This document shows, one piece after another, positions 153 through 16,001 of a stretch of DNA of 33,722 bases. The stretch lies in IMG/VR virus record IMGVR_UViG_3300031788_000068. The stretch is one strand, 5' to 3'. Made by a program: the position numbers and the translations under genes. The stretch is from a virus. The first letter of the stretch is position 1. Each line of letters begins with the position of its first letter. The notes under the pieces are model-generated. The model saw only the letters and a list, made by a program, of their open reading frames with translations. It ran no database searches and was not told where the DNA came from.

Positions 153-160
153 GATAAATA
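153..160 (+). promoter_or_regulatory. Late-promoter-like word GATAAATA, immediately upstream of the ADP-ribosyltransferase ATG (a leaderless arrangement).
   Basis: The sequence ggATAAATAGACAatg at 153-167 shares TAAATAGACA with the element at 13511-13520. The T4 late promoter is TATAAATA. The gap to the ATG is only 4 nt. Confidence 0.3.
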
Positions 161-164
161 GACA

Positions 165-800
165 ATGCGCCATGACATCAGACACTGGATCACCCTGTGT
201 GAAACCGTTCCAGGACGGGGCTATAATGAAATCCTCTATCATGGCACCAATGAAGACTTTGCCGATTTCCAAATCAGTGGCAGCAAAATTCCGGCCCTGG
301 GCTATGGCTATTATTTCACACCGTCATTGGTCAAGGCAAAGCAATACGGCAGGCTGATCATGACGGTTCGCGTCAGATGCGCCAATTTGCTGGATTGGAA
401 CCATCTGACGGACACCGACCGGCAGCGGATCATCGCGGATATAACACTCCAAGTCCCGGCTGACAAGATTGCCGGATATGGCGGGGTGGCTGAAAAAGTG
501 TTTCCGCCCGATCAGATCGAGCAAACCCGCGCGTTCTATCAGGCAAAGCGCGACGAAACCCAAAACCTGTATCACGACCGTGCCAAAGCCAAGCTGTCGC
601 AAACCGACGACGGCAACTTCGTGGTCTCCTGGATGGAGCCCTCCTTGCACAATGCCAGCGATCACGACCTGTTGGCTTTGGCTGAAGTCTATCACAATGA
701 TCTGGCCCGCGACCTGGGATATGATGGCGCCAAATTCGGCGATGAGGTCGTGGTGTTCGCCGCCGATCAAATTACGATTCTGGGCAAAACCCGCCACTGA
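165..800 (+). CDS. H-Y-E class (PARP / diphtheria-toxin fold) ADP-ribosyltransferase-like protein, 211 aa.
   Basis: 'ILYHGTNEDFADF...GYGYYFTPSLVKAKQY' aligns with the PARP catalytic core 'LLWHGSRTTNFAGI...GKGIYFADMVSKSANY' (His26, Tyr49/Tyr50). A candidate catalytic Glu lies in 'GDEVVVFAAD' near the C-terminus. No signal peptide is present. Confidence 0.45.
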   Translation: MRHDIRHWITLCETVPGRGYNEILYHGTNEDFADFQISGSKIPALGYGYYFTPSLVKAKQYGRLIMTVRVRCANLLDWNHLTDTDRQRIIADITLQVPADKIAGYGGVAEKVFPPDQIEQTRAFYQAKRDETQNLYHDRAKAKLSQTDDGNFVVSWMEPSLHNASDHDLLALAEVYHNDLARDLGYDGAKFGDEVVVFAADQITILGKTRH

Positions 801-1256
801 TCATTTGATCGCTCGCTTCGCCCGCACCGTGCCGGTCTCCTTCAGTCGCAGCCGATTGTCTTCCGCGTCGGCGAGATCGAATTGCAGCATGGTCCGTTCT
901 GCCTCGGCGCGCCCGTTGACGCAAATCCACAGCATGTATTTCGCCTTGGCGCCATTGTGGATCAGACGCGGGTGCATTCCGGCTGGCACTAATCGTCGCG
1001 GGGCCGCTAACAAATATGTCGGGCTGTCGAGATCGCGATAGCGGCCCTCCAAATAACCCAAGCTGATTATCGGACCATGGCGCACGATGTGGGTGATCGC
1101 ACTGCTGATGACCAGCGCACTGCGCCGCCCTTGATACAAGGTCACATCCGCCAGCAACAGCAACTTGTCGATATCCGGCAGGGAACTGACCGGATGGGAA
1201 TCGAACGTGGCGGGTTGCTCAGTCACCGGCCGAAACTGGTATTGGTAATCGCTCAT
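801..1256 (-). CDS. Hypothetical protein, 151 aa. It is convergent with the ART gene and abuts it with zero spacing.
   Basis: The ATG at 1256 is preceded on the minus strand by GGAGAGGcatcATG. No recognisable catalytic motif was found. The local motif is 'HPRLIHNGAKAKYMLWICVNG'. Confidence 0.5.
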   Translation of the reverse strand: MSDYQYQFRPVTEQPATFDSHPVSSLPDIDKLLLLADVTLYQGRRSALVISSAITHIVRHGPIISLGYLEGRYRDLDSPTYLLAAPRRLVPAGMHPRLIHNGAKAKYMLWICVNGRAEAERTMLQFDLADAEDNRLRLKETGTVRAKRAIK

Positions 1257-1494
1257 GATGCCTCTCCGCGCTCGGGGTGTGCAACTCTAGTCAAACAACG
1301 CGGCGATGCCAACCTCAAACCGGCTGTCGGGAACCACCAATTTCCCACCAAACAAATCCTTGATTGACGATTTTTTACAATTCGGCCATCGTTTTCGGCG
1401 AAACACCGGGAGGCCTGTCGATGCCGCGATGATGTTTACACCAGCGATTCACCAACTATTTACGAAACCGCGATCAGTGTATGGGGAATAAAGA

Positions 1495-2385
1495 ATGGAT
1501 CAGTCACCTGCGCCAAGTTGGCGCGTGACCTTAAATATGGCACGCACCAAACTAGCAACAAGCCTGCGACAAGTGATTTTAGGGGCAGGCCAACGCAAAC
1601 TCGTCGGCCTTCTCATCGCCACCGGGATTTCGGCGGCATGCCTGACGGTCCAGGACACGACCCTGCTCGGCATCATGCTGGCGGTCACACTCGCATCCGC
1701 CGTCTCCAGTATTGCCGGGTTCGCCTTCTCAGCCGTGTGCGGCGCAATTTTGTTCCATATCGAAAACGATCAGGTTCGCGTGGTGGAACTGATGATCACC
1801 TGTAGTATCGCCAATCAGATCGCCATGACCTGGGCGATGCGCGAGGCGATCCGGTGGCACGAATTGCTGGTTTACCTCATCGGCGGAGTATTTGGATTGT
1901 CGTTCGGGATGTGGCTTTTGCTGTACGCGGATCATAATCTGTATAAACAAACCTTTGGCACGTTTTTGCTGGTTTATGGGGTGTATATGCTGGTGCGTCG
2001 GCCGGTTGTGTGGCGCTGGCAGCATCCCGTGCTGGATTTCGGCGTCGGCTGCCTGGGCGGGATCACCGGCGGCGCTGCGGCGTTTCCGGGCGCCTTCGTC
2101 ACGATCTGGTCTGGCATGAAAGGCTGGGATAAGAATCGGCAGCGCGGCCTGATCCAGCCATTCATCCTGATCATGCAGATTATCGCCATTGTGGCGATCA
2201 GCCTCGCCCACCGCGAGCCGAGCGCAGCAAGCGTCGGCTTTGATCCGAACGACTTGTTTTTCATTCCGGCATCCCTGTTGGGAACCTCATTCGGCATGGC
2301 ATTGTATCAACGATTGTCAGATCACCAATTTTCCCGTGCGGTCAACTGCCTATTGGTGGTGTCAGGACTGGGGTTCCTGCTCTGA
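1495..2385 (+). CDS. TSUP (TauE/SafE) family membrane permease, 296 aa.
   Basis: The sequence is hydrophobic throughout, with about 8 predicted helices. The Gly-rich TSUP signature 'DFGVGCLGGITGGAAAFPGAFVTIW' is present. The RBS is GGGGAATAAAGAatg. Confidence 0.7.
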   Translation: MDQSPAPSWRVTLNMARTKLATSLRQVILGAGQRKLVGLLIATGISAACLTVQDTTLLGIMLAVTLASAVSSIAGFAFSAVCGAILFHIENDQVRVVELMITCSIANQIAMTWAMREAIRWHELLVYLIGGVFGLSFGMWLLLYADHNLYKQTFGTFLLVYGVYMLVRRPVVWRWQHPVLDFGVGCLGGITGGAAAFPGAFVTIWSGMKGWDKNRQRGLIQPFILIMQIIAIVAISLAHREPSAASVGFDPNDLFFIPASLLGTSFGMALYQRLSDHQFSRAVNCLLVVSGLGFLL

Positions 2386-2395
2386 ACAAAGTCGC

Positions 2396-14401: not shown

Positions 14402-15073
14402 CTATGACTCGATGATGTGCGCCATACGCAAGGTGTCAACCGCCTTCGAGTCGAGTTCGATATGCACAGTCACATTCAAGAAGTTGCGCCGTTCATTCGC
14501 TGCCACTTGATCGCTCTTGAGCTTGCGCAGATGGGTCTCAATGTCAGTGCGCAAGTCCGCATGCGGCACCATCACCGAAATCCGATCCCGCACCTCGCCG
14601 TACAGGTCCCGACTGGTCGGCGGGTTCGTCCGCACATGGGTCGCCTTGGTGATCGCCGTTTCGGCTTCCTCGCCTGTATCGGCAAGTTGACCCAACATCG
14701 CGGTCAGAATGGTCTCCTTGAGCTTCATTTCTTGCTCGCGAGTCAGGATGGCCGAAATCCCATGGTGCAGATTCGCCTCGGCAATCTGCTGGCGGATCGC
14801 GTAAGCGGTTTCGATCAAACCGACCGCCGTCTGCAACGCGTCGGTGTTCTCCCGCGCCAGTTTATTGATACGATCAAGCAACGCACTAGGCGGCCTGCCG
14901 TCATTATCACCGCGCAGCAACGCGTCATGGATGGAAATCGACTCGGCCGCTTTGAGAGAAAACTTCTTCGCTGCGTCAATGGCTGCACGAACATAGCGGT
15001 CAGCCCGCCTCACGGTTACCTTCATCTCAACACCTGTTTTCCAAGGACCAGCAGCCGGGCTGCCGTGGCGCAT
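14402..15073 (-). CDS. Hypothetical protein, 223 aa (or 207 aa from the internal Met at 15025). It is the only opposite-strand gene within the late structural arm.
   Basis: The ORF is complete. Two candidate starts exist: the ATG at 15073 (GAGG 10 nt upstream) and the ATG at 15025 (AGGTG 5 nt upstream). The protein is helical and charged. No nuclease motif (HNH or GIY-YIG) was seen. Confidence 0.45.
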   Translation of the reverse strand: MRHGSPAAGPWKTGVEMKVTVRRADRYVRAAIDAAKKFSLKAAESISIHDALLRGDNDGRPPSALLDRINKLARENTDALQTAVGLIETAYAIRQQIAEANLHHGISAILTREQEMKLKETILTAMLGQLADTGEEAETAITKATHVRTNPPTSRDLYGEVRDRISVMVPHADLRTDIETHLRKLKSDQVAANERRNFLNVTVHIELDSKAVDTLRMAHIIES

Positions 15074-15170
15074 CTTCTAGAAACCTCGATCGCCCCCGTC
15101 AACAGGTTTTTTGCTCGGTTTCATAGAATTCTCGGGTCCAACGAAACGGCGACACTTCACCGCTAGGAAC

Positions 15171-15177
15171 CTAAATA
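15171..15177 (+). promoter_or_regulatory. Late-promoter-like CTAAATA(TC), 5 nt before the HExxH gene ATG (a leaderless arrangement).
   Basis: The context is ggaacCTAAATATCgttATG. Confidence 0.3.
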
Positions 15178-15182
15178 TCGTT

Positions 15183-15965
15183 ATGCATGCGACGGAACTC
15201 TTCGAGACGCCTGAGATTGACCTGCGCAAACTGCGCTATGCACAACGCGCCTCGCATAAGTTCTCGCAATGGCTCTACCAAGCCAATGCCAAGACGCCGC
15301 TCAAAGACATGGGCCTCTTTAATGTCCGGACGGCCAAAGGCGATGAACTGTGGCTGCTCCGCGCCACCGAAGTCGGCATCCCCTATCAGGACCTCTATAT
15401 CGGCCTCGGCTGGAACCCAAAATCCACCAGTGATGCCTATGTCACGACCGCCACCATGGCCGGACGGCAACACATGCTTTTGGTGATGATGCTGAAAGAC
15501 GATCCGCGCGACCAAATCGACCTCGGCTACAAACTCGACTGGGCACAGTTCACCCATGAGTTTACCCATGTGATGGATTATCGACGCGGCTATACCCAAC
15601 ACAAAGCCAATGTCGCCAAATCCGGCAAACCGCCAGTTGCCGATCGGGCCGCGTATTATAACAGCCCGATCGAATTCAATGGCTATTATCAACAAGGCCT
15701 GCACACAATTATCTACAAACTCGCTCTCCTAGCGATGGCCAAGAAGCCACCCGATCGTTTCAAGACCATTAGTTATAGCCAATTTCGCCGGGTCTATGAC
15801 ATCTGGTTCGAAAGCGCGTGGCTGCACAGTCTTAACACCGTCTACCAACGCAAGTTTACGCGTCGGTTCTATAAATTCTATCGGCTGGTGCAAACCACGT
15901 GGCCCGATATGGAGGCGATCCAAGACATCGCCAAACAAGACGAAGAATCGCCGGAATTCCACTAG
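15183..15965 (+). CDS. HExxH zinc-metallopeptidase-like protein, 260 aa.
   Basis: 'AQFTHEFTHVMDY' contains HEFTH at 15555-15569. The start is taken at the ATG at 15183; the track's 15111 start is a TTG without an RBS. Confidence 0.5.
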   Translation: MHATELFETPEIDLRKLRYAQRASHKFSQWLYQANAKTPLKDMGLFNVRTAKGDELWLLRATEVGIPYQDLYIGLGWNPKSTSDAYVTTATMAGRQHMLLVMMLKDDPRDQIDLGYKLDWAQFTHEFTHVMDYRRGYTQHKANVAKSGKPPVADRAAYYNSPIEFNGYYQQGLHTIIYKLALLAMAKKPPDRFKTISYSQFRRVYDIWFESAWLHSLNTVYQRKFTRRFYKFYRLVQTTWPDMEAIQDIAKQDEESPEFH

Positions 15966-15994
15966 GTGATTAACCGGAGGGTTTATAGCCGCCG

Positions 15995-16001
15995 CTAAAT
16001 A
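15995..16001 (+). promoter_or_regulatory. T4-type late promoter CTAAATA(TT) ahead of gp25.
   Basis: The context is gcCTAAATATTccatctAGGTGGaaacATG. The 9-mer is identical to the one at 6722 (CTAAATATT). Confidence 0.45.

Follow-up and report, generated by a model that had tools for sequence, protein, structure and literature searches.

The late promoters of bacteriophage T4 have the form TATAAATA, occupy positions -13 to -6 relative to the transcription start (PMC1524935), and are read by the sigma factor gp55 with gp33 and the gp45 sliding clamp. Boxes of the same kind have been described for other phages, namely a predicted late consensus of CTAAATA starting at -12 in the Aeromonas phage Aeh1, where the C is a strong determinant and the gp55 is divergent (Nolan et al. 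2006, PMC1524935), NATAAATA in the marine T4-likes according to a cyanophage review (PMC2984593), and a predicted ATAAATA late motif before structural genes, along with a gp55-like sigma factor, in the Rak2-like phages CBB and GAP32, a phage group in which no homologues of gp33 or gp45 were found (Buttimer et al. 2017, PMC5259590). Here, we consider the word CTAAATA in a 33,722-nucleotide (nt) stretch of phage DNA of 57% GC (IMG/VR record IMGVR_UViG_3300031788_000068; the whole stretch is referred to below as the window), where it recurs upstream of gene starts and where a gp55-type sigma factor is also encoded. Judging from the DNA sequence, we think it very likely that CTAAATA is a T4-type late promoter box read by the phage's own gp55-type sigma, with leadered and probably also leaderless mRNAs as its outputs. 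A CTAAATA promoter is an expected feature of such phages and leaves current understanding standing; less usual are the copies that abut the start codon.

The resemblance to T4 lies in the single A/T-rich, -10-like box with its TAAATA core, the lack of a -35 element, the position upstream of virion-structure genes and the phage-encoded gp55 homologue, whereas the differences are C for A at -12, the abutment of some boxes on the ATG, and a sigma factor that is 275 amino acids (aa) long after splicing, as against 185 aa for T4 gp55, and that carries two inteins and no aligned clamp-binding tail. With Aeh1 the window phage shares the identical 7-mer, the C at -12 and a divergent gp55 partner. However, Aeh1 is a true T4-like phage (Straboviridae), while the window phage falls in the Rak2/Phosso/Atu_ph07 jumbo-phage group, the other members of which use A at -12, so that its C at -12 probably arose independently of Aeh1; moreover, the Aeh1-related gp55 of phage Ah1 keeps Y at the position of T4 Y97, where the window sigma has F. 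The initial annotation had given CTAAATA as the word of marine T4-likes, but the documented precedent is Aeh1 (PMC1524935), the review giving NATAAATA (PMC2984593). CBB and GAP32 belong to the same phage group as the window phage (gp6 and sigma each ~37% identical) and likewise combine a gp55-like sigma with a motif before structural genes; as ATAAATA and a gp55-like sigma were already predicted in both, the present finding falls in a known promoter class, from which it departs in the C at -12 and in the subset of boxes that abut the start codon.

The phage itself gave no match when 20 kb of the window were compared with phage genomes by megablast. In the gp6-like baseplate protein (16454-19840), identity is ~40% to Sinorhizobium phage Phosso and Agrobacterium phage Atu_ph07 and ~37% to the Rak2/121Q/PBECO4 group, and the sequence marks the phage as a Rak2/Phosso/Atu_ph07-like jumbo phage, not T4-like in the strict sense. 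The window, Phosso and Pseudomonas phage Paride have a common gene order, with a minus-strand sigma gene followed by divergent gp53-like, gp5-like, gp25, gp6 and giant structural genes (identities of the baseplate genes were taken from PHROGs). The source samples are from peat/bog, and the same phage population (at least 99.9% identity) was found in many metagenomes, including on a 259-kb contig (ena:ERZ27250025:k141_1547704). Two of these sequences, L001 and L015, match the window at 99.9% identity or more over their overlaps with it and add ~17 kb of flanks to give a 50.6-kb composite with 39 called gene starts, over which motifs in this phage were counted. The comparative set consists of 88 related metagenomic loci (1.40 Mb) anchored on gp6, with gp6 proteins 33-55% identical to that of the window; Phosso is labelled L102 and Paride L111.

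Placement of the CTAAATA word

All of the words listed by the initial annotation are present, with two sets of coordinates off by one (the minus-strand copies lie at 2949-2955, not 2950-2956, and at 1457-1463, not 1455-1462). CTAAATA occurs five times in the window against 1.03 expected, a count reached by none of 100 dinucleotide shuffles, while [CA]TAAATA occurs six times against 2.26 expected, which four of 100 shuffles reach. The five copies lie 27, 19, 23, 5 and 18 nt upstream of the co-oriented ATGs at 2921 (minus strand), 6748, 13540, 15183 and 16020, respectively, and the flanks hold three further copies, each upstream of a called, co-oriented gene at gaps of 26, 4 and 5 nt. All eight copies in the composite lie at most 45 nt upstream of co-oriented starts (binomial p = 2.6e-15; (0.0174)^8 = 8e-15), a scan of the 7-mers within 45 nt before each of the 39 called starts puts CTAAATA first, and no copy lies outside promoter positions, though only about one would be expected there. 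Against a genome of 57% GC, the box is conspicuous. TAAATA preceded by bases other than C occurs at the chance rate (four copies in the window against ~3.3 expected), and two of these four, at 154 and 30483, still lie just upstream of gene starts (p ~9e-4).

Intergenic DNA in this GC-rich genome is 38-52% GC against 57% overall, and a run of AT-rich words there might be chance or a by-product of composition, in keeping with the one-mismatch pattern, which shows no enrichment (33 against 34.5 expected). Shuffles confined to the intergenic DNA, however, give a mean of 0.73 copies of CTAAATA against the eight observed, and none of 5000 reaches eight, so that AT-rich spacers fail to explain the pattern. 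Chance is also at odds with the co-orientation of all eight copies with the next gene, the identical C at -12 in all eight, and the retention of the box at syntenic sites in diverged phages. The enrichment upstream of starts relative to composition, which the initial annotation had named as a deciding comparison, is confirmed by the eight co-oriented copies and by these shuffles, and an explanation by chance, already contradicted by the start-proximity, intergenic-shuffle and hexamer-enrichment results, is barely credible.

The arrangement of the late gene cluster is consistent with promoters at these positions. Nearly every intergenic gap of at least 16 nt before a plus-strand gene in this cluster holds the box or a one-base variant of it, the exception being the 79-nt gap before 31356, while genes lacking a box stand no more than 13 nt behind the preceding gene, touch it or overlap with it, in agreement with an arrangement in operons. 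No -35-like or other conserved element was seen upstream of the box in the aligned sites, a scan for sigma-70-type sites gave no enrichment (13 against 12.7 expected), and a scan for sigma-70 promoters and terminators found nothing at the boxes.

In the relatives, boxes recur at matching places. Those of Phosso (ATAAATA) and Paride (GATAAATA) are syntenic with the boxes of the window, standing before the first gene of the baseplate operon, before gp25 and right after the giant gene, while Atu_ph07 has a box before gp25 and 121Q before structural genes. TAAATA lies at most 40 nt upstream of 68 gp25 genes (67 in the related loci and the window's own). Of the 15 words that its letters can form, none is as rare across the 88 loci as TAAATA (1015 copies against 2043-3664), yet 23% of its copies lie at most 40 nt upstream of the ATG of an open reading frame (ORF) of at least 60 aa, compared with 6-11% for the other permutations, and it is the most enriched of all 4096 hexamers upstream of ORF starts (p = 1.6e-130), ahead of Shine-Dalgarno words. 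Within long coding sequences it is depleted about 3-fold relative to codon shuffles, both on the sense strand (134 against 432 +/- 17) and on the antisense strand (166 against 515 +/- 24).

An A/U-rich word that always stands just upstream of start codons could in principle act in RNA, as a processing site or an A/U-rich translation enhancer, and not as a promoter. Depletion on the antisense as well as the sense strand of genes argues for a DNA-level signal such as a promoter and not an RNA-level one, and an RNA signal also sits badly with the failure of the other permutations of the same letters to pile up upstream of starts, with the Shine-Dalgarno site found between word and ATG in the leadered class, and with the identity of the word to the documented Aeh1 gp55 box, given that a gp55 homologue is encoded nearby. 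We consider a signal in RNA or translation highly improbable, and the promoter reading is the one followed here.

Position and orientation, the presence of the sigma gene, the syntenic copies, the avoidance on both strands and the bimodal spacing described below all uphold the match first drawn between the word and the gp55-type sigma of the same window. In the mechanism we propose, the spliced sigma (3798-6632, minus strand) would direct host RNA polymerase to CTAAATA in the absence of a -35 element, and transcription would start 6 nt past the last A of the box, by T4 geometry. The late units of the baseplate region would then be 6748-13513, 13540-14151, 15183-15965 and 16020-30490, with one more from 30523 onward under a weaker TTAAATA, and a further box would drive the gene of a 44-aa membrane protein on the minus strand. 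We infer the reading of the box by the sigma, the position of the start site, the late timing and the leaderless translation, the timing from the functions of the downstream genes (gp53-like, gp5-adjacent and gp25/gp6 baseplate). Read in this way, the boxes mark out the late transcription units of an uncultured jumbo phage whose genome is at least 259 kb, and they flag small genes of unknown function (44, 57 and 65 aa) and a gene with an HExxH motif as late functions. The comparative data carry the gp55/TAAATA system beyond the T4-likes, into a large jumbo-phage clade most of which is uncultured.

In AT-rich relatives, leadered boxes often stand directly behind a GC-rich hairpin and T-run (for example, L103 5160-5195 and L105 1280-1330), and positions -13 to -7 relative to TAAATA are 42-62% T, an arrangement that resembles a terminator-promoter cassette.

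The gp55-type sigma factor and the base at -12

The sigma gene (3798-6632, minus strand) encodes 944 aa and matches PHROG 12791, 'sigma factor for late transcription' (E = 2.9e-62), in four separate stretches, alongside LAGLIDADG/intein matches in Pfam. Intein 1 spans aa 172-515 (344 aa; nt 6119-5088, minus strand) and intein 2 spans aa 555-879 (325 aa; nt 4970-3996, minus strand); both begin with Cys and end in Asn, the next residue being Thr or Cys, and one of the two has LAGLIDADG signals. The first is inserted behind an invariant Tyr (T4 Y63), the second 7 residues past the promoter-recognition motif NPFSFYT, and the relative L009 likewise has an insertion at the first of these sites. The spliced product of 275 aa aligns in one piece across both junctions to the intein-less homologues of Phosso (42% identity), Serratia phage BF and GAP32, in its C-terminal half it can also be aligned to cyanophage gp55 (E down to 5e-7), and the T4 gp55 residues N13, Y63, F86, N93 and P94 are invariant in the alignment. 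Neither a PDB sequence search with the 944-aa sigma nor a Pfam search with the spliced sigma gave a match. As the gene is split by two inteins, late transcription would depend on protein splicing.

All eight strong sites of this phage have C at -12. The relatives prefer A, which precedes TAAATA in 112 of 234 promoter-like copies but in only 46 of the 781 other copies, and away from promoter positions no form of TAAATA is avoided as strongly as the one with A in front. T4 gp55 flips the adenine at -12 into a pocket, where it stacks on Y97 (PMC7892883). The corresponding region of the window sigma reads NPFSFYT, with F at the Y97 position and an adjoining S, compared with NPFAYYT in 39 of 40 relatives, including five with NPFAYFT. 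One relative with the F alone still mostly uses A, which makes the link between the pocket residues and C at -12 a hypothesis built on a single case.

Leadered and abutting boxes

Two layouts had been proposed for the boxes of the window, and both are real: at 2949, 6722, 13510 and 15995 the gap to the ATG is 18-27 nt and includes a Shine-Dalgarno site, while at 15171 (5 nt) and 154 (4 nt) there is no usable one. The relatives give the same division in larger numbers, the distance from box to ATG being bimodal: 16 sites at 4 nt and 31 at 5 nt form a sharp peak, where about two would be expected at each distance (47 in all against ~3.8, p = 2e-34), and a second, broad one covers 16-30 nt, far enough for a Shine-Dalgarno site to fit in between. 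Gaps of 0-3 nt and 8-13 nt are almost empty, and the absence of the latter fits the fact that they would leave leaders too short for a Shine-Dalgarno site. With the T4 box at -13 to -6, +1 coincides with the A of the ATG when the gap is 5 nt. On this geometry, boxes at gaps of 18-27 nt would give leaders of 13-22 nt carrying the Shine-Dalgarno site, and for those 4-5 nt away (15171, two in the flanks and possibly 154) the first transcribed base would be the A of the AUG or its neighbour, so that the mRNA would be leaderless.

Leaderless mRNAs with a -10 element a few nucleotides upstream of the AUG include lambda cI transcribed from PRM and those of many actinobacterial and Deinococcus-Thermus genes. 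The abutting boxes resemble these in their distance of ~5 nt from the ATG, the lack of a Shine-Dalgarno site and the strict use of ATG (no other start codon occurs at gaps of 4-5 nt), but they are of gp55 type, not sigma-70 type, and within a jumbo-phage clade they turn up repeatedly at late structural genes. The genes with an abutting box in the window phage are that of the HExxH protein (15183), two in the flanks and possibly the ART gene described below, and their Shine-Dalgarno pairing ranges from +1.2 to -3.3 kcal/mol, compared with -5 to -10 kcal/mol, at GGAG-type sites, for five of the six leadered genes. The layout of the HExxH gene is kept in the only two diverged homologues found (71% and 43% identity, Met1 aligned), which read GTAAATA-ttgtc-ATG in L104 and, directly behind a terminator hairpin, ATAAATA-ggcg-ATG in L105. 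The N-termini of gp25 align at the same Met in either layout, and gp6 in the relatives is always leadered. Immediately before the ATG stands a pyrimidine at 44 of 46 abutting sites but at only 86 of 147 leadered ones (p = 5e-7); a pyrimidine at -1 is in line with the start-site preference of RNA polymerase and fits selection of the A of the ATG as the start.

The boxes might be late promoters and the abutting copies still make no leaderless mRNA, if the genes behind them were translated from read-through transcripts by way of a Shine-Dalgarno-like stretch further upstream or, in a variant of this idea, by Shine-Dalgarno-independent initiation on the A/U-rich spacer, with the abutting box only adding transcripts for downstream genes. 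Such stretches do occur, the related gp25 sites often having AGG/GGAG-like words at -4 to -1 of the box, often by the stop codon of the preceding gene, and site 154 has a GGA 10 nt from its ATG. Yet gaps of 0-3 nt, which would improve the Shine-Dalgarno spacing, are almost absent, the pairing at the abutting sites of the window phage is weak or lacking, the terminator of L105 lies directly before its box, and the pyrimidine at -1 fits a start at the A. We judge translation from read-through transcripts unlikely and prefer leaderless output from the abutting boxes.

Several points weigh against a T4-type promoter with leaderless outputs. The 4-5-nt peak comes mostly from one family, with 42 of its 47 sites before gp25 (50 of 68 gp25 family members have gaps of 4-7 nt), and therefore reflects few independent events; in many of these gp25 sites an AGG/GGAG-like stretch directly precedes the box, at 10-12 nt from the ATG, and could serve translation from read-through transcripts; and with the 4-nt gap of site 154 and of one copy in the flanks, the first transcribed base would be the U of the AUG if T4 spacing were kept rigidly, so that one nucleotide of start-site flexibility is needed. 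On the side of the sigma, the clamp-binding tails of T4 gp55 (…SLDFLYEAND) and its Ah1 counterpart (…LSFLEDDEDDSE) have, judging by alignment, no counterpart in the window protein, which ends in a basic tail, KGKRGRKPKSAVH; lacking the acidic, hydrophobic C-terminal tail of T4 by which the clamp is bound, it may be activated differently. Neither a gp33 nor a gp45 gene was seen in the window, the only region searched, and the function of the sigma requires the splicing of both inteins, which we assume.

Taken together with the base at -12, these features suggest a wider proposition, on which we are evenly divided, namely that an environmental clade of gp55 jumbo phages has conserved leaderless late mRNAs (for gp25 in most relatives, and for the HExxH gene and others here), and that the A-to-C switch at -12, along with the Y-to-F and A-to-S changes in the pocket, is a natural change of specificity. 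Two testable points follow from it, the leaderless late mRNAs from gp55-type promoters and the tie between the -12 specificity change and two pocket residues. In the literature that could be searched, gp55-type promoters abutting start codons turned up nowhere, which is not proof of novelty; the layout is absent from the jumbo-phage papers on AR9 and PA5oct, which were searched for the word, the PA5oct omics paper reporting only sigma-70-like promoters. The gp25 genes of 121Q, Atu_ph07 and Phosso are leadered, leaving no cultured example of the abutting gp25 layout among these.

In the relative L025 (~800-870), a divergent gp25 and a 187-aa ORF are only 22 nt apart, in the arrangement CAT-N5-TATTTATAAATA-N5-ATG, so that the spacer consists of two back-to-back TAAATA boxes, each 5 nt from its own ATG.

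Individual sites and neighbouring genes

The box at 6722-6728 (plus strand), an exact match, lies in the 115 nt that separate the divergent sigma and baseplate genes and heads the operon 6748-13513, with a predicted start at ~6734 and a 14-nt leader that would carry GAGGA ahead of the ATG at 6748 of a gp53-like baseplate wedge gene. Its syntenic counterparts are ATAAATA in Phosso (L102 10959) and GATAAATA in Paride (L111 9459). A hairpin around this box (CTGTCC…GGACAG), seen by eye, is not common to the other sites and was dropped. The next box, at 13510-13516 (plus strand), overlaps the TAA stop codon of the 1017-aa gp5-like gene; here transcription is predicted to start at ~13522, giving an 18-nt leader with GGAG before the ATG at 13540 of a 57-aa ORF, which is followed by a 142-aa ORF.

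The abutting box at 15171-15177 (plus strand) lies 5 nt from the ATG at 15183 of the 260-aa HExxH gene, which has no usable Shine-Dalgarno site; the predicted start falls on the A of this ATG, and the mRNA would be leaderless. The gene upstream is more likely a minus-strand ORF of 223 aa at 14402-15073 than the overlapping 249-aa ORF on the plus strand (region 14402-15166), as gene finders and codon statistics favour the former and Phosso also has minus-strand genes at the equivalent spot; with the minus-strand gene as its upstream neighbour, the box lies in a divergent intergenic region. Further on, the box at 15995-16001 (plus strand) heads gp25, gp6 and the 3549-aa gene (16020-30490), with a predicted start at ~16007 and a 13-nt leader that would carry AGGTGG before the ATG of gp25 at 16020. 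The 3549-aa ORF (19841-30490, plus strand) directly follows gp6 and is syntenic with the 4555-aa 'virion structural protein' of Phosso and with giant genes in Atu_ph07, 121Q and Paride.

The exact box on the minus strand, at 2949-2955, has a predicted start at ~2943 and a 22-nt leader with AAGGGA before the ATG at 2921. The 44-aa ORF behind it (2787-2921, minus strand) is called by gene finders, has a good codon score and a hydrophobic N-terminus, and looks real; with an exact box and a Shine-Dalgarno site, its late expression, suggested by the initial annotation, is likely.

Variants of the box are less certain. The ATAAATA at 154-160 (plus strand) lies 4 nt from the ATG at 165 of an ART-PolyVal gene, for which this is the only possible start codon, and is possibly a weaker promoter of the leaderless type; it has A for C at -12, A being the clade consensus. 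The gene matches PF18760 (ART-PolyVal) at 31.5 bits against a cut-off of 31.2, and the one homologue found, diverged at 37% identity, has no box upstream. That ART is expressed late, as had been suggested, is plausible from this single site one base off the consensus, and its packaging in the manner of T4 Alt is speculation. A second ART-PolyVal gene lies in the flank (L015 14600-15319, window-equivalent 35122-35841), with TTAAATA 67 nt upstream, and is 459 nt downstream of an 84-aa gene that has CTAAATA 5 nt from its ATG.

The TTAAATA at 30483-30489 (plus strand), which overlaps the stop codon of the 3549-aa gene and precedes by 33 nt the ATG at 30523 of a 65-aa ORF with a strong GGAGG, is probably a weaker late promoter, with a predicted start at ~30495. 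Phosso (L102 37265) and Paride (L111 30552) also have a box immediately behind the giant gene, the Paride site reading GATAAATA-tcgat-ATG (30552-30567); further ATAAATA sites of Phosso lie at L102 19579 and 37914. The GTAAATA at 1457-1463 (minus strand), listed in the initial annotation as lying upstream of the gene at 801-1256, is probably a chance occurrence: it is 200 nt from the ATG at 1256, compared with at most 33 nt at the supported sites, and non-C copies occur at the chance rate. A further TTAAATA (1531-1537) lies inside a gene for a TauE/SafE-family membrane transporter (1495-2385, plus strand; Pfam E = 1.3e-25).

Upstream of the sigma gene, the palindrome CTATATAG at 6663-6670, preceded by TTTTGAAATCCCGCCC, is one base off the box on both strands; it could be the sigma gene's own, perhaps middle, promoter, and does not recur. 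One copy of a CBB-like middle-promoter motif, 'TGAAA…TATA', also lies upstream of the sigma gene and was set aside for want of recurrence. The sigma gene is adjoined by a gene for a dual-specificity protein phosphatase (3249-3779, minus strand; Pfam E = 2.4e-11).

Some 2.8-5.4 kb past the end of the window, a 2.9-kb gene-free stretch contains a CRISPR-like array (L015 16080-18640, window-equivalent 36600-39160), with no cas gene seen in the short flank. The array has a repeat of ~36 nt (GTTTTCGTAGCCACCCAACGATAGGGTGACTGCAC), unique spacers of ~30 nt and a period of 66 nt, with ~13 regular units as well as degenerate copies, and in another sample (L016) it is one unit longer.

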